From NCBI GenBank assembly GCA_020632375.1, contig JACKFR010000001.1, positions 149,106 to 213,105 on the forward strand: a stretch of 64,000 nt of DNA. The letters are read 5' to 3'. The notes below the pieces were generated by a model. It worked only from the letters and a program-made list of their open reading frames with translations. It did not search any database and was not told where the DNA came from. A program made the position numbers and the translations under genes. The stretch comes from Candidatus Nomurabacteria bacterium. GTDB lineage: Bacteria > Patescibacteriota > Dojkabacteria > SC72 > JAHDCA01. Each line of letters begins with the position of its first letter. The stretch's first letter is position 1. Below are positions 7,503-40,796 of the stretch, piece by piece.

Positions 7503-8072
7503 TCAAACACCAACACTTGTATAGATTTCTTTTTGAAGCTTGTCTAAATCAACCAGATCCTTATTGATGTAGTTTAAAACTCTGCCGATATCGTGAGTCA
7601 GGATAATCATGAGAGCAGCAGACTTGGGGTCTGCAACTTGAAAGCTTCCATCTGCTTTCCCTTCTGCAATTACATCAGATACGAGGTTGAAGTATGTTTT
7701 GAAAAATTCCAGCGCACCTTTGGTCTTAATGCTATTGTGCGAGCTAATTAAAAGAGCATAGTTCATTAAAAGGATCTCAGGCTGTTTCTGTGACATTCTG
7801 TTATTGGCCTCTAGAAGAACCTGAAGCTTTTTGATAGGGGACGAGTATTTGACGAGCAGCTTTTTTAATGCATTGGTTCTTTGTGTCGCAAGGTATTTTG
7901 CCCCTTCAAGCAGAAGCATTTCTTTACTGTCAAAATATTCATAAACGCTTCCCTTAGCGATTCCTGCCGCTTTTGCGATATCGTCTACAGTACCGTTTTC
8001 TAAGCCCTTTTCTGCGATTACTTGTGCAGCAGCTGTTATAATTTGTGTTTTATTGATCTGGTGTTTCGACAT
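7503..8072 (-). CDS. TetR/AcrR family transcriptional regulator
   Basis: 189 aa with the N-terminal TetR HTH QIITAAAQVIAEKGLENGTVDDIAKAAGIAKGSVYEYFDSKE. Confidence 0.88.
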   Translation of the reverse strand: MSKHQINKTQIITAAAQVIAEKGLENGTVDDIAKAAGIAKGSVYEYFDSKEMLLLEGAKYLATQRTNALKKLLVKYSSPIKKLQVLLEANNRMSQKQPEILLMNYALLISSHNSIKTKGALEFFKTYFNLVSDVIAEGKADGSFQVADPKSAALMIILTHDIGRVLNYINKDLVDLDKLQKEIYTSVGV

Positions 8073-8085
8073 ATGTGTGCGAAAT

Positions 8086-8099
8086 TGACTAACTAGTCA
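8086..8099. promoter_or_regulatory. 14-bp palindrome, candidate TetR operator
   Basis: TGACTAacTAGTCA is a perfect 6-bp inverted repeat with a 2-bp spacer, 14-27 nt upstream of the TetR start codon (8072, minus strand). Confidence 0.35.
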
Positions 8100-8192
8100 T
8101 ACTGAGGATTATGACAGGTACTGACCAGGAAGTCAATGTGGTTAGTTATGGAAAATAAACTTTAATGATTGTTCCGCTATAGGTTAGCGGCA

Positions 8193-8264
8193 TACCGCCA
8201 CGGGGAATCGAACCCCGGTTTACAGGATGAAAACCTGTCGTCCTAGCCACTAGACGATGGCGGC
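8193..8264 (-). tRNA. tRNA-Glu (anticodon UUC)
   Basis: The reverse complement GCCGCCATCGTCTAGTGGCTAGGACGACAGGTTTTCATCCTGTAAACCGGGGTTCGATTCCCCGTGGCGGTA folds as a 72-nt cloverleaf. Anticodon loop is TTTTCAT; no CCA is encoded. Confidence 0.9.
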
Positions 8265-8278
8265 TTAATCCGGGTATT

Positions 8279-8515
8279 TTAGCCTATCTGTTTCTTTTTG
8301 TTAAGGAATTCTTTTTCTTCTTCGAAAGTAGCCCTTTTGTAAGAGTTTGTCTCTTGGTCAAGAATATACCTTCGTTTACATTTACACTGCAAAATAACTT
8401 TGTTTGGGCGTAGTTCTTCTCGGTTTCCGATCTTGTCCAATGGGTGCGTACACGCAGGACAAAGACGTTTTTTAAGCAATACAATCTGAAAAGGCATGAT
8501 TAATTTCTTTATCAT
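8279..8515 (-). CDS. small zinc-ribbon protein (hypothetical)
   Basis: 78 aa with CPAC...(24 aa)...CKCK, lying between two tRNA genes. The nested same-strand ORF 8284..8484 is rejected. Confidence 0.45.
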   Translation of the reverse strand: MIKKLIMPFQIVLLKKRLCPACTHPLDKIGNREELRPNKVILQCKCKRRYILDQETNSYKRATFEEEKEFLNKKKQIG

Positions 8516-8538
8516 TTTTTATCAAGCTTATTTAAAAG

Positions 8539-8624
8539 TGCTGGGGAGAGGACTCGAACCTCCACAGGATATAACTCCCACATGGGCCTAAACCATGCGT
8601 GTCTGCCAGTTCCACCACCCCAGC
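8539..8624 (-). tRNA. tRNA-Leu (anticodon UAG)
   Basis: 86-nt class II tRNA: acceptor GCTGGGG/CCCCAGC, anticodon stem CATGG/CCATG with loop TTTAGGC, a 17-nt variable arm, and T-loop TTCGAGT. Confidence 0.9.
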
Positions 8625-8642
8625 TGTTAAAGAGCGTGCAAA

Positions 8643-9623
8643 TTATACTATAAAACGAATATATATCATATTTGAAGCTGGTAGATAGCTACCAACTTTA
8701 TACCCTAGAGAGGAGTAATTTTCCATATAATTTAAGATCCAATTATGAAAAACTTCTTCCGGATATGCTTCAAATTCCTTGTAAAATTGTGTCTCAAAGT
8801 CTGAGTAAGTTACGTTTTTAATGATGTCAATTATAACCTTATCTGAACTTTGCGATGCAAGATATGCTATAAAGTTATTTGATAAGTCATAAGCTGCATT
8901 TGCTTTCCCAAGTGAATCGCCATTAAAGAGTCTATCTAAATCGTTTAAACTATCAACTGGGTAATCTTCCAGAGTAGCTCTTACAGAAGCGGATTTTGTA
9001 TCTGAAAAGTAGTCGGCTAAACCCTCGTCAAACCATCTAGGCGTTGTAATTACAGCAAGATAGTAACGGAATTGAAACGCATGAAAGAGCTCATGGCTAA
9101 TTAACTTAAAAAAGTCTTGTTTACTATATGCAAGGTCGGATCCCATATAGATATTTATTTCACCAGCAAAAGTATATCCTCCATAGCCAATATCATATCC
9201 GTAAGGCTGTTGTGTGGCTTTTTCATAGTCAGCTTGGTTGTCGAAGTATAAAACTCTTATCTTATACGGCAGCTCTTCTCCGAAAAGCCTAGCATATCTG
9301 TCGTATTCTGAAGCAAGATTCGTGAGAATAAAATCTTCTTCGTATTGATAATTAATTGAATCTTCGTAACTTATTTCAGGGCTAAATTCAAAATAGAACC
9401 TGTCATCAGCATATTTGAGTAAACCCTCGGTAGAGGCATTTTCTTCAGGATCAATGTATTCATGCCGATTGTCTACGAGACTTTCATACTCGAGGGCTGA
9501 GCTATTATTGGGAGATTGAGATCTCTGATAAATAGCTATAGCTGCAGCAGCGACGAAGTATACTTGCAGTGCGAAGATTAAACTAGCAATGATTCCTATC
9601 GCAACCTTTGTGTTTCTTTTCAT
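8643..9623 (-). CDS. membrane-anchored gluzincin-like metallopeptidase (Peptidase_MA-like)
   Basis: 326 aa with an N-terminal TM. Carries HELFHAFQ (HExxH), with WFDEGLADYF (third-ligand Glu) 19 residues later. Confidence 0.6.
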   Translation of the reverse strand: MKRNTKVAIGIIASLIFALQVYFVAAAAIAIYQRSQSPNNSSALEYESLVDNRHEYIDPEENASTEGLLKYADDRFYFEFSPEISYEDSINYQYEEDFILTNLASEYDRYARLFGEELPYKIRVLYFDNQADYEKATQQPYGYDIGYGGYTFAGEINIYMGSDLAYSKQDFFKLISHELFHAFQFRYYLAVITTPRWFDEGLADYFSDTKSASVRATLEDYPVDSLNDLDRLFNGDSLGKANAAYDLSNNFIAYLASQSSDKVIIDIIKNVTYSDFETQFYKEFEAYPEEVFHNWILNYMENYSSLGYKVGSYLPASNMIYIRFIV

Positions 9624-9637
9624 ATAGTGCTTTGAGT

Positions 9638-10738
9638 TTAGCTTTCTGTTCCGAAGACTTCAAGCCTTTGTTCAGCTTTGTCTTCCGCATTTTTAGCACT
9701 TCTTTTGAGCGAGTAGTATGTTCCACGTCCAACCCCACCACTTTTAATAAAGCCTTCTTTTATAAGTTCTTGTAAGTCACGGTATGAAGTCATAAAAGAA
9801 ACCCTCATCATTTTGGTATACTCCTGTCTTGTTATTTTGCCGACGTTTTCGAGGTATTCAAGAATCTTGATCTGCCTGGTATTAAACTTTTCTTTAAGTT
9901 TTCCCTGTTTTTTAATCTTGTTTTGGAATGTGTCAGTGTATTTATGCTCTAGATTAAGCATTTCAAGTGAAACTGCATACAGAAACGCTTCGATAAAAAT
10001 CGTCTGATCTCTTTTAGACCTTGACATCTTGAATGCAGACATTAGATCTTCAGCGATGAAATTAATCGCCTTACTATATGAAAGCATTCCCTCAGGATTG
10101 TATCCTGCATCTTTAGCAATTGCGGCTACTGTTGCTATGGATGTTATCTGATTTCCTCCATAAAGCGGTGCTTTATCAATAAGCTCGAATAGTAAGACTG
10201 CCAGTTGAATTAGCTTGTGTGTTTTGTTTGAGCGATCTTGCATCCATCTGAAAAACTCATCAAAGTATGCAGACATGTTTTTATCCGGGTAGAAATCTCG
10301 GTATTTATACCAAGTGTCGTATATTTCGTTGGGCTTGTCTGAGAATGTTCGCATTTTCCCAGCCTCCCATTCCTCAATTACTTTATTTATAATCAGCTTA
10401 TTTATATGAGAAAGCAGCTCTGAAGAAGGCGGGATGAACTGGTTTTGGTTATAGCTTTTTACAAACTCCATCGCACTACGATAATTTGTAAAAATAATTA
10501 GTCTTTTTCGAGCCGAAGGCATAACTTTTCCTTCTTGGACCTGTTCTGCTTGATGAAGTGCTATTCGATCACCTATGAGCTCACTGAGGTTGTATATATC
10601 ATCGGTAAGAAGGTCTCCTTCAAGCTCTTCTCGGTGGGTGTGGGGGAGTGGCGTAGACTTGATCCTTTCGAGCGAGACTTCGTAACGAATCAGGTAATCG
10701 CTTATTAGGTTGGTTATTGTAAAAGTAGGTGTTTTCAC
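9638..10738 (-). CDS. Fic-family-like protein with degenerate active site and C-terminal winged helix
   Basis: 366 aa with Fic-core architecture. APLYGGNQI (res 190-198, nt 10145-10171) stands where HPFxDGNGR is expected. C-terminal wHTH: ILEYLENVGKITRQEYTKMMRVSFMTSYRDLQELIKEGFI. Confidence 0.6.
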   Translation of the reverse strand: MKTPTFTITNLISDYLIRYEVSLERIKSTPLPHTHREELEGDLLTDDIYNLSELIGDRIALHQAEQVQEGKVMPSARKRLIIFTNYRSAMEFVKSYNQNQFIPPSSELLSHINKLIINKVIEEWEAGKMRTFSDKPNEIYDTWYKYRDFYPDKNMSAYFDEFFRWMQDRSNKTHKLIQLAVLLFELIDKAPLYGGNQITSIATVAAIAKDAGYNPEGMLSYSKAINFIAEDLMSAFKMSRSKRDQTIFIEAFLYAVSLEMLNLEHKYTDTFQNKIKKQGKLKEKFNTRQIKILEYLENVGKITRQEYTKMMRVSFMTSYRDLQELIKEGFIKSGGVGRGTYYSLKRSAKNAEDKAEQRLEVFGTES

Positions 10739-11055
10739 AGTCAGTGTAATGTTTAGTCTGAGTTAATTCCCCATAAGTATTCTTAGGGAAACTCACGTAA
10801 CATTATTATAACGAAGGTTTGCGAGTAAAGAAAGAGAGATTCTGCGAAAAACTTTTTTATAACAGAAGTTCTGTTTTTCAGTAAGACACTAAAGTCCTAG
10901 ATCTACTCTATATTGCAGGCTTTTATTTTCTCTCAGTATTTCGGTCTATATGGTGCTTGATCAGGACTCTTTTTTAGATGTATTACTTTAATATCCAACA
11001 AGAGCTTGTCTCATGTAACTCATGCTTTATAGACAAACTCTGGACATGCCTTTCT

Positions 11056-11676
11056 CTAATTGGGGCACACCGTAAGTGAAACAGACTGATTTGCTACCGT
11101 TTCAATATATTCTAAAAGCCCATTACCCCCAGCTTCCACTAGAACTGCTAGGCGAGGAAACGCATTTTGGACCTTCCGATTGAAAGGATTGAGAACAACC
11201 CAACCCTCTTCTCTTGCTTCTTCAGAAGTAGTAGGCCCTATAACAAACTCTAACGGAGGGGAGTAAACAATTCTGCTAATTTTCAGTAGAGATCGTACTT
11301 GTTCTGTTGGAACTAAGCATTCTGCTGCTAGAAGCAGAGCCTGTTGTGACGGGTCTAAGGTGCCGGAATCTTTTTCGGGAACGCTCAGTGGGCTTTTCTG
11401 CAGTGTCCCAGCGTAATCACTAAAATTAACCCAAGATCGCCTTTGGTACGGCCATCCTTGTAGTCTGAGAGGAAAAAATGGTCCATTCAATTCTAAAGCG
11501 GCAATGCCAGTTGGCATTCGGTGAATCACATTTAGCACGCCTGCGCCTTGAGGGTTCCACAACAGACATTCTCCTACAAATCCATAGAAAATCAATGGAT
11601 CTAGAGGTGTACACCTCCCCATTTCAGTGGGCGGAAGATCGACGGAAAACTGTTGTGCTTGCTTAGTCGTGATCAT
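11056..11676 (-). CDS. hypothetical protein (orphan, G+C-shifted)
   Basis: 206-aa ORF with no family recognised. It is Lys-poor and Pro/Trp/Leu-rich, and visibly richer in G+C than its surroundings. An open frame this long is unlikely by chance. Confidence 0.55.
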   Translation of the reverse strand: MITTKQAQQFSVDLPPTEMGRCTPLDPLIFYGFVGECLLWNPQGAGVLNVIHRMPTGIAALELNGPFFPLRLQGWPYQRRSWVNFSDYAGTLQKSPLSVPEKDSGTLDPSQQALLLAAECLVPTEQVRSLLKISRIVYSPPLEFVIGPTTSEEAREEGWVVLNPFNRKVQNAFPRLAVLVEAGGNGLLEYIETVANQSVSLTVCPN

Positions 11677-11764
11677 CTAATAAATAACCCTTTCTGACGG
11701 GATTATAGCCTTTTTGTGTGACGGTGTCTATATATCCGCTAAATATCCGCGCAGTCTTTTCACA

Positions 11765-11837
11765 AGCTGGTGGTGAGGATCGAACTCACGACCTAATCTT
11801 TACGAAAGATTTGCTCTGCCAACTGAGCTACACCAGC
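11765..11837 (-). tRNA. tRNA-Thr (anticodon CGU)
   Basis: The reverse complement GCTGGTGTAGCTCAGTTGGCAGAGCAAATCTTTCGTAAAGATTAGGTCGTGAGTTCGATCCTCACCACCAGCT is a 73-nt cloverleaf with anticodon loop TTCGTAA. Confidence 0.92.
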
Positions 11838-11872
11838 TAGATGAGGTTATTATAGCAAATAGGAAACTATAT

Positions 11873-13573
11873 TTAGCCAGTATGCGTTCGCTCTTCATCA
11901 TCGATAATTCGCCTGTATTCGTCCAGTAATGATTCTTTGTCAGGTGGCATCAGTAGTTGATCTGTTTGAGGTAAACCAAGCCGTGTTGGATCAGGCGGTA
12001 TCTGTAGGAGACTCATTCGCTCTGGACTGGTCCATGTTGAGTACGCTTTTTCTTCGTTCGGAAGCCGAAATAGAGTGTATGTTATCATTTGAGGTGCTAC
12101 TTGCGAGAGCCAGTTGTTGAAATCTGGATCCGTATTATACCACTCTTCAAACGATTGACCTACTTTACGAACTCGAGAAAATAGTGATAATGCCATAACC
12201 ATAAAACGGTGCATTGCAGATCGTCTTACCTGATTTAACCCTCCGCTTCCATTAAGTCCGACTTTATATTCTACGAGATGTAGTCTGAACGCAGGTATTT
12301 CAGTTGTTCCCCAGCCTTTTAGGATCTCGTCATAAATTCGTGAGTCTGGACTTATCGAAGTTGTATTTTCTTGATAATCTTCTCCGGATACGACAACAAG
12401 ATCAGGTTTTGTTAAAACAGGCCTAAGAACCTTTCCTTTGCTAGTTGCAATCGCAAGATAGCCAGCCAGTTTTCTGGCAAACTTTGTAACTGTTTTACTT
12501 GCTTCCAGGATTGACAAAACTCTCTGCCATTCTGTAAATTCCTCAGTGCTCTCATCACTTGGTTTGAGTGTTTTCCATTCTCCGATGATTTGTTCATGTC
12601 CTTCTACTGTTGTCAAAATATCTGAAAAATCATTTCTTGATAAGACCAGTTCAAGGCTTTCAAGGTTGTCTAATATCGGCGGTCGGAAATTAATAATATC
12701 TTCGTGGAGAGACCTATTGGGTAAATGTTCTTTGTAGATACCTGCAGATCTGTTAAGTTCTTCTCTATACTGATCCAGTCCTTCGGTAGTCATTTCAATT
12801 GTTTTCGTATGAAGAGCTGGTGTATAAATCCTATCACCATCTTGCCGGATAGCCTTCCACTCTCTGTCCCGCATCATAAAGATACAATTTAGGTATGACA
12901 GCCCAACTGTTTTTTCAATTTCATCCATCAGCCAGTATCTTTGTGCGGAATTGTTTGCCAAACGACCAAAGAAATCTGACCTGCTGGCTAGATATCCATA
13001 TGTTGTTTTGGGATAATAACCATATCTGGCAAGATACCTTATAAGACCCCGATCTAGCATATTTGAAATATGTCTCCATAACTCTTCATAAAGTCTTGAG
13101 TCTTTGAGTCCTTCTTCAATTTGATAAGCATCAGAAGGATCACCCGATAGGGCGTTTCTTAAAGCTTCTAAGTCATTGATGTCATAGTTATCGAGAATAG
13201 AGTGAATCGCCTGTGTTTCAAGCATGATTGCATGAATACTAGCATGGTCGGGTTCTGTCCACCTTATTGAATTCGGAGCATTGGCAGATATCGTAGCGTT
13301 AATTTCATTACAAATATCTCTACTATTTGCGGATGAAAATGGATCTTCACGATCCATGATGCAATGAAACATCGTCCCTCTGTCAATTATCAACAATCTC
13401 GGGACTGTATGCAAGAAATAACCGTACTCGCCTTTATGTTCTGGTTCCGGAGTTTCAGGTGGGGGTGGATCAAGTGCTATTGGATTGTTGGATACAGTAG
13501 CCCCTTGCCCTATTTTAAGTCGTTCTATTAACAAGTTTGCGATGTGGCTCAAATAAAATAGAGTATATCCCAT
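11873..13573 (-). CDS. hypothetical protein with C-terminal PD-(D/E)xK-like nuclease motif
   Basis: 566-aa ORF, G+C-shifted. KPDLVVV (D391) and HLVEYKVG (E435, K437) resemble RecB/Cas4-type motifs II and III. The N-terminal ~380 aa are unrecognised. Confidence 0.6.
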   Translation of the reverse strand: MGYTLFYLSHIANLLIERLKIGQGATVSNNPIALDPPPPETPEPEHKGEYGYFLHTVPRLLIIDRGTMFHCIMDREDPFSSANSRDICNEINATISANAPNSIRWTEPDHASIHAIMLETQAIHSILDNYDINDLEALRNALSGDPSDAYQIEEGLKDSRLYEELWRHISNMLDRGLIRYLARYGYYPKTTYGYLASRSDFFGRLANNSAQRYWLMDEIEKTVGLSYLNCIFMMRDREWKAIRQDGDRIYTPALHTKTIEMTTEGLDQYREELNRSAGIYKEHLPNRSLHEDIINFRPPILDNLESLELVLSRNDFSDILTTVEGHEQIIGEWKTLKPSDESTEEFTEWQRVLSILEASKTVTKFARKLAGYLAIATSKGKVLRPVLTKPDLVVVSGEDYQENTTSISPDSRIYDEILKGWGTTEIPAFRLHLVEYKVGLNGSGGLNQVRRSAMHRFMVMALSLFSRVRKVGQSFEEWYNTDPDFNNWLSQVAPQMITYTLFRLPNEEKAYSTWTSPERMSLLQIPPDPTRLGLPQTDQLLMPPDKESLLDEYRRIIDDEERTHTG

Positions 13574-13636
13574 AGTCGTCTATATGTCTATACTGTATAT
13601 ATATCAGTTCAAAGGCAATTTCTGAATTTTTCCTCG

Positions 13637-13644
13637 TGTATAAT
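13637..13644 (+). promoter_or_regulatory. -10 element (TG+TATAAT) 6 nt upstream of an ATG; candidate leaderless promoter
   Basis: The sequence is cgTGTATAATgaactcATG, with TATAAT at 13639-13644 and ATG at 13651. No SD is present. Confidence 0.4.
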
Positions 13645-13650
13645 GAACTC

Positions 13651-14331
13651 ATGTCAATGAGTAAAGAAACACTGAAAATGCTAGCTAAAGTCGCTTTGGT
13701 TCTGTTTGTTTTTTACCTTTTTATAAAACTTCTCTTTATACCGCTGGTTTTATCCGATCAATTTGTTATTTTTGTCGAAAAGCTTGGATACTGGGGGTAT
13801 TTAGTAATTGCACTCTACCAGATTGCTTCACATGTTTTTGCCCCATTGACTGGAACACCTGCTGTTTTACTTGCAACTTCGCTGTACGGTATGAAAACCG
13901 GCCTGATTCTGCTTTATTTCGCAAGTTTAATAAGTGCTACCATAAACTTCTATCTTAGTCGGAAGTACGGCAGAAAGATTATTATTAAGCTTGTTGGTAA
14001 AAAATCTATGAATGAGGTTGATGAACTCGCCTCCGTTGAGGGCTTTAAGCTGATGCTTTTCTGTAGAGTCTTTGGGTCTTCAGTCTTTGACTTTCTGTCT
14101 TATGCGGCAGGTTTAACAGAAATTCGCTTCCAAGACTACATGAAAGCAACAGTAATTGGCCATTTGATAGCGAATCTATCGTTCTACTTTATATTCAGAA
14201 AACTAGATCTGAGAAGCGAGCAGGGGATAACTATTTGGATTGGAAGTCTTACTGTGATGGCAGTAATTTTTTCGATTGTTCTTGCAAGGTATATTAAGCT
14301 CAAAAAAAGTAGTAGCAGAAAGACGGGCTAA
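13651..14331 (+). CDS. TVP38/TMEM64 (DedA-related, SNARE-associated) family membrane protein
   Basis: Multi-TM protein with the signatures FAPLTGTPAVLLATSLYG and YLSRKYGRK. The track ORF starts at GTG 13636, but that codon overlaps the -10 box, so ATG 13651 is preferred. Confidence 0.7.
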   Translation: MSMSKETLKMLAKVALVLFVFYLFIKLLFIPLVLSDQFVIFVEKLGYWGYLVIALYQIASHVFAPLTGTPAVLLATSLYGMKTGLILLYFASLISATINFYLSRKYGRKIIIKLVGKKSMNEVDELASVEGFKLMLFCRVFGSSVFDFLSYAAGLTEIRFQDYMKATVIGHLIANLSFYFIFRKLDLRSEQGITIWIGSLTVMAVIFSIVLARYIKLKKSSSRKTG

Positions 14332-14382
14332 ACTGTAAAAGCTTATTAGAAATACAAGCACTTGTCTTACGCACTATAAGTT

Positions 14383-14453
14383 AGCGGGATACGGGAATCG
14401 AACCCGTATCACTACCTTGGGAAGGTGGTGTTTTACCATTAAACTAATCCCGC
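14383..14453 (-). tRNA. tRNA-Gly (anticodon CCC)
   Basis: The reverse complement GCGGGATTAGTTTAATGGTAAAACACCACCTTCCCAAGGTAGTGATACGGGTTCGATTCCCGTATCCCGCT is 71 nt with anticodon loop TTCCCAA. There is one C-A mismatch in the anticodon stem. Confidence 0.85.
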
Positions 14454-14468
14454 ACGAAACCTCTTAGA

Positions 14469-14831
14469 TTAAGCTTTTACTGCATTTGAAACAAGTTTCC
14501 AATCTGCTTTCAACATCTCGCTAAGTTTCTGCGCTGTTTCTTCTGTTACTTTTTTGTCGTTTTTTATCTCATCTATTACATTTTTAACAAGCTTTTCATA
14601 ACCTGCCTTGTCTATCTTTTTTCCCACTTCCTTTAGGTTTGCGAGCTTTTTGTCTACAACAACTTTTGCCTTTTTATACTCAACTTCTGCTTGACTCTTT
14701 AGTTCTTCTGCCTTCTTTTTAAGCTCTTTTCTAGTCTCCTCACCAGATTTCGGTGCAAACAAAACTCCTGCAGCGGCTCCGACAATTGTTCCTAAAATAA
14801 TACCCTTCATAAAAGACTCTGTTCTGCTCAT
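14469..14831 (-). CDS. YtxH-domain protein
   Basis: 120 aa. N-terminal GIILGTIVGAAAGVLFAPKSGEETRKELK is the YtxH signature, followed by a Lys/Glu-rich helix. Confidence 0.8.
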   Translation of the reverse strand: MSRTESFMKGIILGTIVGAAAGVLFAPKSGEETRKELKKKAEELKSQAEVEYKKAKVVVDKKLANLKEVGKKIDKAGYEKLVKNVIDEIKNDKKVTEETAQKLSEMLKADWKLVSNAVKA

Positions 14832-14901
14832 TTTCTTGATTGGACAATTTAAATAATCTCTAAGCAGAATATTACAACAATACTCTGCATGAAATCTAGG
14901 G

Positions 14902-15504
14902 TTAAAGTCTTAGCTTTTTAATCAAAGCGTAGCCAAGTGCGACAAAAATAGCGGGTGGAAGTAGTGACAGGAAAAGATTCAATAAGTTAAGATTTCTTGC
15001 TTTTTGACTTGTTTCTTTTTGGCCTTCAGCTGTTGCTGATTCTTGCTGCTGTTGCTCATTTCCTTGCAGATTTTCGGAAGTGTTGCTGCTATCTGAAGAC
15101 TTTACAGCTAAAGCACCTATTTTCGCTCTGACAGAGTCTGTTCCATTGATACAGTTTTCTCCGTAAGATAAAACAGGTAGATCGGTCCCATCTTCGCAAA
15201 GATTTTTTATTTTGTCATAAAGAACTCCACCTGAAGTACTGGAGATATCTTCTGTTTGTAGATTATAGCTCCCAGTTCCTAAAGTTTTCTGAAAATATGT
15301 TGAAACTTCATCGCACTCTTCGCAGTCGGGTGAAACAAATAATACAACTACATCTGTTGCTTCAACTTCAGCACCTTTAACCTCTCCTTTTTCTACGGTT
15401 ACCGATGAAGGTACATTATCTGCATAGACATTCCCAGAGGAGTAGATGCTATTAAAAGATAATGAAATAAGTATAAACAATATTGACCGGAATGCTTTAT
15501 TCAT
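14902..15504 (-). CDS. secreted CxxC (thioredoxin/glutaredoxin-like) protein with C-terminal membrane anchor
   Basis: 200 aa with a signal peptide, VVVLFVSPDCEECDEV (CxxC after a beta strand), and a C-terminal TM plus basic tail (LLPPAIFVALGYALIKKLRL). Confidence 0.45.
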   Translation of the reverse strand: MNKAFRSILFILISLSFNSIYSSGNVYADNVPSSVTVEKGEVKGAEVEATDVVVLFVSPDCEECDEVSTYFQKTLGTGSYNLQTEDISSTSGGVLYDKIKNLCEDGTDLPVLSYGENCINGTDSVRAKIGALAVKSSDSSNTSENLQGNEQQQQESATAEGQKETSQKARNLNLLNLFLSLLPPAIFVALGYALIKKLRL

Positions 15505-40202: not shown

Positions 40203-40459
40203 TGCAAAGTTTTGATCTTTATGCTTTCAGAAAGGTTCTAGAAATACTGGGTTTCAATCCAAAGTCTTTCTGGGCTCTAGAAACGATGTTTATAATTGGA
40301 CTCGCGATATTTGTTGCGGGTCACCCTAATCAATCAGTTGATAAATCTTTTTGCGATTTTGTTGCGTCATTCGTAAACTCTTTTTACCACTGCCTGAGCG
40401 AAGAGCAAAAGACAAGTATCAGCTTAATCTTTGGAAATGTTTTGCATGGGTTCGTTTAA
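40202..40459 (+). CDS. hypothetical small protein (uncertain)
   Basis: 85-aa ORF. Its GTG overlaps the FKBP stop (taGTG). No family recognised, and it lies in a region where all three forward frames are open. Confidence 0.3.
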   Translation: MQSFDLYAFRKVLEILGFNPKSFWALETMFIIGLAIFVAGHPNQSVDKSFCDFVASFVNSFYHCLSEEQKTSISLIFGNVLHGFV

Positions 40460-40796
40460 TAGGTTTTGGGGTCGTTCTGACCAAACACCCTCGAATAGTA
40501 GGCCTCAAGAAGACTTCCCCGAGGCTCTTGAAGCCCATACAGAAGCCCAACTGGGTGTTCTGAGATTCCTGTGGGAGGTGTCAAGAGATCAGTTTAAAGT
40601 AGGCGGGCGGATCGCTTTGGGTCAGTTTCTCTATGGGATGACGCTGCTTCAGTATAAAGCTGTATTACCAGAAATAAGGACATTTCTTCATGCTGGCTCT
40701 GAGATTCTGGTTGTGGTTAGGACAATTGGGGAACAGTATCATACTCAGTTCAGAAGTCCGGATTCGTTCGATGATGATCCTTGTCTTTTTGAATAG
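40446..40796 (+). CDS. hypothetical protein (G+C-rich patch)
   Basis: 116 aa from MGSFNRFWG (the track ORF starts at 40431). Local lines count 34/60 and 31/60 G+C. No family recognised. Confidence 0.4.
   Translation: MGSFNRFWGRSDQTPSNSRPQEDFPEALEAHTEAQLGVLRFLWEVSRDQFKVGGRIALGQFLYGMTLLQYKAVLPEIRTFLHAGSEILVVVRTIGEQYHTQFRSPDSFDDDPCLFE

Follow-up and report, generated by a model that had tools for sequence, protein, structure and literature searches.

Two lineage-restricted genes on either side of a tRNA-Thr gene, next to a cargo hot-spot in a bacterium of the Candidate Phyla Radiation

Do two orphan genes of unusual composition that bracket a tRNA gene represent a foreign defence cassette, or are they long-standing possessions of a single bacterial lineage? 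This question is raised by a locus in a 64 000-nucleotide stretch (hereafter, the window) of contig JACKFR010000001.1 from the assembly GCA_020632375.1, in which two open reading frames (ORFs), orf566 and orf206, lie on the two sides of the gene for tRNA-Thr(CGU) (Table 1). A previous interpretation based on the sequence alone (hereafter, the sequence-only reading) proposed that these elements formed a single, compositionally foreign cassette wrapped around the tRNA, i.e. a horizontally acquired defence or mobile module with a nuclease-like component. The comparative analysis reported here suggests a different history. The two genes are likely to be old, separately transcribed, lineage-specific additions of one narrow Dojkabacteria-type lineage within the Candidate Phyla Radiation (CPR), and the evidence leans slightly toward their products acting as independent accessory proteins rather than as a coupled system.

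Both ORFs are genuine protein-coding genes that evolve under purifying selection. An exhaustive phmmer search with orf566 as the query, against 1.84 billion representatives of approximately 15 billion proteins, retrieved the query itself, the homolog P0003 (563 amino acids (aa), 38% identity, E=2.9e-95), which aligns with orf566 colinearly from end to end, and one weak match, P0004. The latter is a 754-aa tandem-repeat protein that reaches E=5.9e-6 through the alignment of 8 repeats with the same 39-aa segment of orf566, probably a repeat-inflated chance match. The gene for P0003 is located on a 55-kb contig (L004) in which an ortholog of orf206, encoding 227 aa (39% identity, E=2e-37), comes just after tRNA-Thr(CGT). 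In both pairs of orthologs, the second codon position is the most conserved one, followed by the first and then by the third: for orf566 and P0003, the identities in positions 1, 2 and 3 are 0.50, 0.62 and 0.35 (544 aligned codons), and for orf206 and the 227-aa gene, 0.53, 0.61 and 0.38 (194 codons). This order of conservation implies selection acting at the level of the protein.

The opposite view, that the ORFs are spurious and correspond to chance frames in G+C-rich non-coding DNA or over a structured RNA, could draw on three observations: further ORFs open in other frames of the same region (11426..11614 and 11478..11666), shuffled versions of the orf206 region fold slightly less well than the region itself (z=-2.3, 20 shuffles), and single-sequence AlphaFold yields no confident fold. 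This view is refuted by the alignments and the codon-position pattern, and its probability is vanishingly small: the homologs are full-length and colinear, with 36–39% identity, and the frames are kept across approximately 50% nucleotide divergence. The structured-RNA alternative in particular was rejected because Rfam, at both the gathering and the permissive thresholds, finds the tRNA alone. The database entries for the two genes (MCB9790549.1, MCB9790548.1, UniRef100_A0A955KVR6) bear only the label ‘hypothetical protein’ or ‘Uncharacterized protein’. The true start of orf566 is probably not the first ATG (13573) but the TTG at 13534, which gives a 553-aa protein, in agreement with NCBI model MCB9790549.1; the downstream start is favoured because a conserved, promoter-like upstream block overlaps the first ATG.

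Both families are lineage-restricted, as tested exhaustively for orf566 and with less power for orf206. When the two-sequence alignment A1 served as the query of a word-indexed search, only the self match was returned, and hidden Markov models (HMMs) of the two families find no further copies in the window. The two families are also absent from the viral contigs and from the phage and plasmid collections searched. More distant relatives of the locus were collected using the neighbouring Fic-like gene as the anchor, which yielded 73 loci, 11 from species-representative genomes and 62 from metagenomes, with 40–51% identity between the Fic-like proteins; the family HMMs have no match in any ORF of these 73 loci. 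The genes are found in both species examined, that of the window and that of L004 (with which L005 and L006 are identical), and in the same-strain contig L080, which is identical to the window.

The distant loci provide a reference for the layout of the region. In all 68 of the 68 loci that include the upstream sequence, tRNA-Thr(CGT) is located 9–38 nucleotides (nt; median 15) from the start of the Fic-like gene, compared with 1025 nt in the window and 1664 nt in L004. The distant loci contain 38 sequence variants of this tRNA; the tRNA-Thr of the window differs from that of L004 by 1 nt and shares its acceptor stem with several of the distant relatives. Judging by its sequence and placement, tRNA-Thr(CGU) is a native gene of the clade and not cargo.

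On the other side of the tRNA, the interval between tRNA-Gly(CCC) and tRNA-Thr is a clade-wide variable cargo hot-spot. This interval spans 35–2330 nt in 53 loci, compared with 2544 nt in the window and 4671 nt in L004; in 13 of the 53 loci, it is shorter than 150 nt and essentially empty, with an empty state of 48–49 nt among those encountered, and in 21 it is at least 1 kb long. The cargo in the relatives amounts to 92 ORFs that fall into 43 unrelated clusters. The majority of this cargo is not defence-related and includes PadR together with DUF1048, a HAD hydrolase, a dCMP deaminase, a polysaccharide deacetylase, a glutamate-5-kinase-like protein and many unknowns; defence-type genes are represented by a ParE/Phd toxin–antitoxin pair (L010, L026, L032 and L033) and by a restriction–modification unit consisting of a C5-methylase and a LlaMI-type endonuclease (L016). 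No integrase was detected among the approximately 30 of the 43 cargo clusters that were scanned. Within this framework, orf566 occupies the tRNA-Thr end of the hot-spot and orf206 resides in a separate slot, the one that is 9–38 nt long elsewhere.

Each of the three elements of the locus is preceded by its own promoter-like site (Table 1), and two of these separate sites are conserved in L004. The block GTATAGAC...GG(G/A)TATACT...TTTTATTTG recurs in L004, upstream of the ortholog of orf566; the L004 tRNA-Thr has an equivalent element, TGtTATAAT, upstream; and the L004 ortholog of orf206 is preceded by TATAAT plus AGAAAGGAAG. The TGcTATAAT element of the window is the probable promoter of the tRNA, and orf206 additionally has a ribosome-binding-like motif, GAAAGGG, approximately 13 nt upstream of its ATG. 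These motifs suggest that orf566, the tRNA and orf206 are transcribed independently. The tRNA is set off by 34 nt from the stop codon of orf566 and by 87 nt from the start of orf206. Given the separate slots and the separate promoter-like sites, the two genes do not make up a single cassette around the tRNA. The coordinates, the identity of the tRNA, the spacings and the extra-frame ORFs in the sequence-only reading all agree with the ORF list, ARAGORN and Rfam; it is the unity of the cassette that is not borne out.

Table 1. Features of the tRNA-Thr(CGU) locus, with coordinates given as positions in the window
Feature	Coordinates	Strand	Description
orf566	11873..13573	-	566 aa; lineage-restricted protein-coding gene (ORF list)
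orf206	11056..11676	-	206 aa; lineage-restricted protein-coding gene (ORF list)
tRNA-Thr(CGU)	11764..11838	-	ARAGORN and Rfam (67.8 bits)
orf566 promoter-like site TAGACA-17-TATACT	13562..13590	-	Consensus scan, 10/12
Extended -10-like element TGcTATAAT	11849..11857	-	Read from the sequence; between the orf566 stop and the tRNA
orf206 promoter-like site TAGACA-17-TATAAT	11702..11730	-	Consensus scan, 11/12, best of the region
tRNA-Gly(CCC)–tRNA-Thr(CGU) interval (interval 1)	11839..14382		2544 nt; orf566 and the VTT/DedA-family gene
VTT/DedA-family gene	13636..14331	+	Inside interval 1
tRNA-Gly(CCC)	14383..14453		Far border of interval 1
AT-rich non-coding spacer, orf206 to Fic-like gene	10739..11055		317 nt, GC 0.341
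Fic-fold and winged-HTH gene (Fic-like gene)	9638..10738	-	Conserved flank; Pfam HTH_DeoR, sub-threshold Fic; PADLOC SoFic E=2.2e-11

How old is this arrangement? The gene order in the window and in L004 is preserved from ParA/ParB to LGT, with synteny extending over more than 20 kb through ParB, ParA, two S26 peptidases, TetR, tRNA-Glu, tRNA-Leu, an M9-like protein, the Fic-like protein (84% identical between the two), the orf206 family, tRNA-Thr, the orf566 family, tRNA-Gly(CCC), YtxH, RNase HII, UPF0102 and tRNA-Lys. The two genes and the tRNA keep their positions in L004, an outcome that the sequence-only reading had itself listed as speaking against a foreign module. Because the arrangement is shared with L004 while the synonymous sites are saturated (as measured by the synonymous substitution rate, dS) everywhere, it predates a deep split. 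The 24 syntenic protein pairs have identities of 51–92%, and the two genes beside tRNA-Thr have the lowest values of all, 36% and 39%; the non-synonymous rates (dN) of these two genes are 0.60–0.69 (0.69 for orf566) compared with 0.09–0.36 in the neighbouring genes.

The surroundings of orf566 have been less stable than orf566 itself. In L004, the member of the orf566 family shares the tRNA-Gly–tRNA-Thr interval with genes for an AI-2E transporter, an M48 peptidase and a VTT protein. This VTT gene (8182-8820(-)) is unrelated to the one in the window (13636-14331(+)), with no detectable similarity between them (BLASTP E=23). Thus, the content of the hot-spot kept turning over while orf566 stayed put. 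On the orf206 side, L004 encodes a distant 193-aa tandem paralog of orf206 (E=1e-5), placed where the window has the 317-nt gap. No remnant of this paralog is detectable in the gap with tblastn or blastn. The comparison of the gap with L004 reveals a single conserved patch of 21 nt, just upstream of the start of the Fic-like gene, and the gap probably contains the promoter of that gene.

A recent origin of the locus, whereby an island or a prophage would have integrated using tRNA-Thr as the attachment site and left the present genes as a remnant, is compatible with the adjacency to the tRNA, the raised G+C content and the orphan status of the genes, as well as with a 46-nt patch 3' of the tRNA that is hypervariable when 99%-identical strains are compared, and with the breaks of three assemblies at the tRNA. 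This scenario is largely refuted, and it retains a very small probability. There is no second copy of the 25-nt 3' end of tRNA-Thr in the window at up to 3 mismatches, and no meaningful repeats occur in positions 8000-15000. The weak match at 10951-10969, to which the sequence-only reading pointed, among its rejected items, when it proposed a search for a repeat of the tRNA 3' half at the distal border, was not recovered within 3 mismatches either, and the idea of an attachment (att) site was rejected. Searches of Pfam, PHROGs and NCBIfam reveal no integrase, transposase or phage gene, the ORFs between tRNA-Gly and the Fic-like gene being the VTT gene, orf566 and orf206. Furthermore, the tRNA has one of the genes on each side, the G+C content in the third codon position (GC3) is native, and the arrangement is kept in L004 despite the saturated dS.

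The breaks in the assemblies have a simpler cause. A sequence identical to orf206 is present in a 99%-identical strain, on contig L001 (GCA_020429345.1), which ends inside tRNA-Thr; contigs break at the tRNA in three assemblies other than that of the window. The L080 contig, a Logan contig from the same sample, carries the VTT gene and the first 459 codons of orf566, with 99.98% identity to the window. Because orf566 is present on this contig from the same sample, the contig ends at the tRNA are assembly gaps. Exact-protein look-ups had no entry for P0001, the 566-aa form, YtxH or the VTT protein, whereas that of RNase HII was successful and served to identify the gaps as such. The Logan assemblies of SRR12358676 leave positions 11817-12194 unassembled, which comprise the 3' third of orf566 and the 5' part of the tRNA and are flanked by contigs that are 99.98–100% identical to the window; low coverage or local strain variation could be the cause. 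The hypervariable patch consists of 14 differences between the window and L001 within the 46 nt (11717-11762) directly 3' of tRNA-Thr, a segment that spans the -35-like hexamer of orf206. Another 24 differences, mostly in third codon positions, are found in the TetR gene (7734-8145), with a single one in the 3.5 kb between; this mosaic suggests recombination tracts.

The tRNA hot-spots of Escherichia coli offer the closest point of comparison. In that species, 18 of the 41 hot-spots are within tRNA loci, and the defence cargo at the tRNA hot-spots is almost always carried by recognisable mobile elements (PMC10121019). The present locus resembles these hot-spots in having conserved flanks, variable content, empty and occupied states, and restriction–modification and toxin–antitoxin genes among the cargo. 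It differs in that there is no integrase or att repeat, in the size of the cargo, at most 4.7 kb, which is mostly non-defence, in the fixation of orf566 and orf206 across two species, and in the position of orf206 outside the hot-spot proper.

The composition of the two genes was the main reason to suspect a foreign origin. The hand counts of G+C in the sequence-only reading (26, 26 and 29 of 60 nt in three lines of the locus, against 17 of 60 in a reference line) were exact. The enrichment is strong in orf206, which has a GC of 0.459 where the window averages 0.382 (99.9th percentile among windows of the same size, z=3.5), and this gene is the strongest composition outlier of the window (Lys 2.4%, Pro 9.2%). 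In orf566, it is modest, with a GC of only 0.406 (95th percentile, z=1.7). Only the first and second codon positions contribute to the shift; their G+C content (GC12) is 0.51 in orf206 and 0.45 in orf566 against a mean of 0.41. GC3, at 0.36 and 0.32, respectively, is within the norm of the window genes (mean 0.33, sd 0.04), so that no foreign signature is detected at synonymous sites. Given that the excess lies wholly in the first two positions and GC3 is native, it is an effect of amino acid composition and not a signature of recent transfer: the G+C rise is a by-product of the Lys-poor, Pro- and Arg-rich, acidic make-up of the proteins, and the codon usage is not foreign. The claim of a compositionally foreign cassette hence does not hold. 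The L004 orthologs share the odd composition, with high GC12 and normal or low GC3.

The Lys poverty, which the sequence-only reading recognised correctly, is pronounced, with 2.4% in orf206 and 3.7% in orf566 compared with the mean of 8.7%; both proteins contain more Arg than Lys and are rich in Pro, again as proposed. At the sites that are substituted between the orthologs, Lys accounts for 4.9% of the residues, more than at the conserved positions but less than the 9.5% in the neighbouring genes (Fisher p=3e-5). The persistent depletion may mean that amelioration from a Lys-poor ancestor is incomplete, or else that selection acts against lysine. Elsewhere in the window, a 121-aa ORF with a TTG start (40431-40796(+)) has a comparable make-up (GC 0.456, Lys 1.7%) and occupies an intergenic-looking slot; it has no Pfam match, no Rfam match and no RNA-fold signal (z=+0.85), and when the family HMMs were run on the window, it proved unrelated to the orf206 and orf566 families.

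Taken together, these observations are best accommodated by a scenario in which orf566 and orf206 would have entered, or arisen in, the common ancestor of the window species and the L004 species. There, they would have settled in neighbouring intergenic slots, one on each side of the native tRNA-Thr(CGU). Their entry may have occurred by recombination at the hot-spot rather than by site-specific integration. Since then, the genes would have been inherited vertically, under purifying selection, with the proteins changing 2–7 times faster than their neighbours. This is the reading that we consider likely, and within it we infer a gain of the two genes rather than a loss.

The reverse polarity, whereby the genes would be ancestral to a wider clade and would have been lost on the way to the 73 distant loci, making the short tRNA-Thr–Fic spacer the derived state, gains some plausibility from the structure of the sample: the 73 loci are all about equally distant from the window (Fic-like identity 40–51%), L004 is close (84%), and the distant loci could therefore form one sister clade. 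Three facts make such a loss improbable. No further homolog of orf566 appears among the representatives of approximately 15 billion proteins; the 38 tRNA-Thr variants imply deep branching among the distant loci, and yet, the 9–38-nt spacer is universal in them; and an empty state of the hot-spot also occurs.

Several points weigh against the scenario of an old gain of two independent genes. Only two lineages carry the genes, so that counts alone do not favour a single gain over a single loss in a sister clade. The genes co-occur in 2 of the 2 lineages and share their odd composition and a similar level of divergence, which fits a functional link. The saturated dS makes fast evolution indistinguishable from replacement by a divergent allele. 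Against the protein collection, orf206 was searched by word index only, and this search missed P0005, the 39%-identical ortholog that is present in the collection. The region scan found no terminator-like site, so that read-through co-transcription may occur. Finally, Lys is still depleted at the substituted sites after a dN of 0.6–0.7, which hints at a functional constraint that the scenario does not explain.

What could the proteins do? None of the family collections provides an answer: neither orf566 nor orf206 has a significant match in Pfam, PADLOC, PHROGs or NCBIfam, in agreement with the sequence-only reading, which recognised no family. Their L004 homologs have no significant match in Pfam, PADLOC or PHROGs. 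Across these scans of the window proteins and the homologs, the best scores are those of TcpS (E=0.18) and a PHROG endonuclease (E=0.37). In PADLOC-DB v2, no family is found at E<=1 for orf566, orf206, P0003 or the 227-aa and 193-aa proteins of L004. Profile searches of the PDB (with A1, A3 and the C-terminal domain alignment A4) yield only chance-level matches; the best one, to saccharopine dehydrogenase (E=0.0095), covers a poorly conserved stretch and was dismissed as such. Structure prediction, which the sequence-only reading had proposed as a check, gave single-sequence AlphaFold2 models that are unusable (mean pLDDT 36.4 for orf566 and 32.8 for orf206). Both proteins lack a hydrophobic segment (maximum KD19 <1.4), have a pI of approximately 5.1 and are probably soluble and cytoplasmic.

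The best-conserved region of orf566 is located toward the C-terminus (approximately aa 361-480) and might be the catalytic part. It contains two motifs that are invariant between orf566 and P0003, a comparison of two sequences only, namely (K/R)PDLVV (D391) and, approximately 44 residues later, EYKVGL (E435 and K437), both in a hydrophobic, strand-like context. This D...ExK pattern, a lead and no more, resembles the signature of the PD-(D/E)xK superfamily, with which orf566 has no profile similarity in Pfam or the PDB, either over the full length or for the domain alone. Accordingly modest is the standing of a PD-(D/E)xK-type nuclease, which would be the single most likely fold of orf566 and, even so, an unlikely one. 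The spacing between D and E in this superfamily is typically 10–30 residues, shorter than in orf566, and short motifs such as PD...ExK often arise by chance. A local hhalign comparison with UPF0102, a PD-(D/E)xK family, gave no score, and neither did the LlaMI positive control, with a single-sequence template. The ‘nuclease-like protein’ of the sequence-only reading has no support from any of the tools.

The most consequential alternative is that orf566 and orf206 form an undescribed two-gene defence or conflict module, with orf566 as a nuclease-type effector and orf206 as its partner, sensor or immunity protein, in a tRNA-side island of the defence type. The hot-spot does carry ParE/Phd and the C5-methylase with LlaMI in relatives, the two genes evolve the fastest among the 24 syntenic pairs and co-occur in both lineages, the residues D391 and E435-x-K437 do not vary between the two sequences and stand in hydrophobic contexts that look like strands, and the adjoining Fic-like gene matches the PADLOC SoFic family (Table 1). 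That L004 has a diverged tandem paralog of the small gene points in the same direction, considering that immunity genes often have such paralogs. Nevertheless, such a module is unlikely. Neither family has a PADLOC match in either genome, and no nuclease match is found in Pfam or the PDB even with the conserved domain alone. A native tRNA stands between the two genes, each of which has its own promoter-like site, and the cargo of the hot-spot mostly consists of PadR, HAD, deaminase, deacetylase and kinase genes. Defence systems usually spread by horizontal transfer, and here the distribution is extremely narrow, with no relatives in the phage, plasmid and viral-contig collections searched. The mobile elements that bear the defence cargo of the E. 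coli hot-spots (PMC10121019) have no counterpart at this locus. In a more specific version of this alternative, which we regard as quite unlikely, a PD-(D/E)xK-like orf566 and the orf206 family, including its tandem paralog in L004, would make up an undescribed, Lys-avoiding two-component conflict system of the defence or the toxin/immunity type, so far limited to a single Dojkabacteria-type lineage and seeded at the cargo hot-spot, and the Lys depletion would reflect selection tied to function. Of the original proposal of a horizontally acquired defence or mobile module, what stands is that these are lineage-restricted accessory genes at a tRNA-bounded hot-spot; the integrase, the att repeat and any match to defence, phage or plasmid genes are missing.

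The comparison with toxin–immunity and type II toxin–antitoxin pairs leads to a similarly mixed picture. The placement of a small gene after a large one, the fast evolution and the diverged paralog of the small gene in L004 are all shared with such pairs. In contrast to them, the genes are separated by a tRNA with its own promoter-like element; the searches found no toxin, immunity, antitoxin or secretion domain in either protein, and neither has a hydrophobic N-terminal or membrane segment; and conservation in orf566 peaks at the C-terminus, which is not its most variable part. Compared with the orphan families of the phylum, nothing essential differs. Genes that are specific to a lineage and have no known function are the norm in Patescibacteria (PMC9132574), and orf566 and orf206 show the same restriction at approximately the genus or species level and the same lack of family matches; the extra features are the Lys poverty, the unusually fast evolution and the tRNA-flanking place at a hot-spot.

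Two further observations concern the surroundings and the labels. In the Fic-like protein, which the sequence-only reading took to be the product of a degenerate gene, the Fic active-site motif is indeed replaced by a non-canonical one, (I/L/M)DKAP(F/Y/L)xxGNQ(I/M)T; its clade-wide conservation shows that the gene is not decaying. The proteins of the window are labelled Candidatus Nomurabacteria (H6764_00835), and the identical 206-aa protein in the 99%-identical metagenome-assembled genome is labelled Candidatus Dojkabacteria (KC622_02615), with relatives that have the same locus layout labelled Dojkabacteria or ‘Saccharibacteria’; at least one of these taxonomic labels is probably wrong.

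If the two genes are the old lineage-specific additions that we consider likely, they are of little consequence in themselves, being two more restricted hypothetical proteins in a phylum that holds tens of thousands of them. The conflict-system reading, if true, would contribute a new system in a phylum where few have been characterised. For the interpretation of similar loci, the lesson is one of method: a rise in G+C near a tRNA, without a shared shift at synonymous sites, is no evidence for recent transfer. The tRNA-Gly(CCC)–tRNA-Thr hot-spot is more useful than the two genes, as a place to mine accessory and defence genes of CPR bacteria, and it is relevant to the mechanisms of gene exchange in these bacteria, which are poorly understood.

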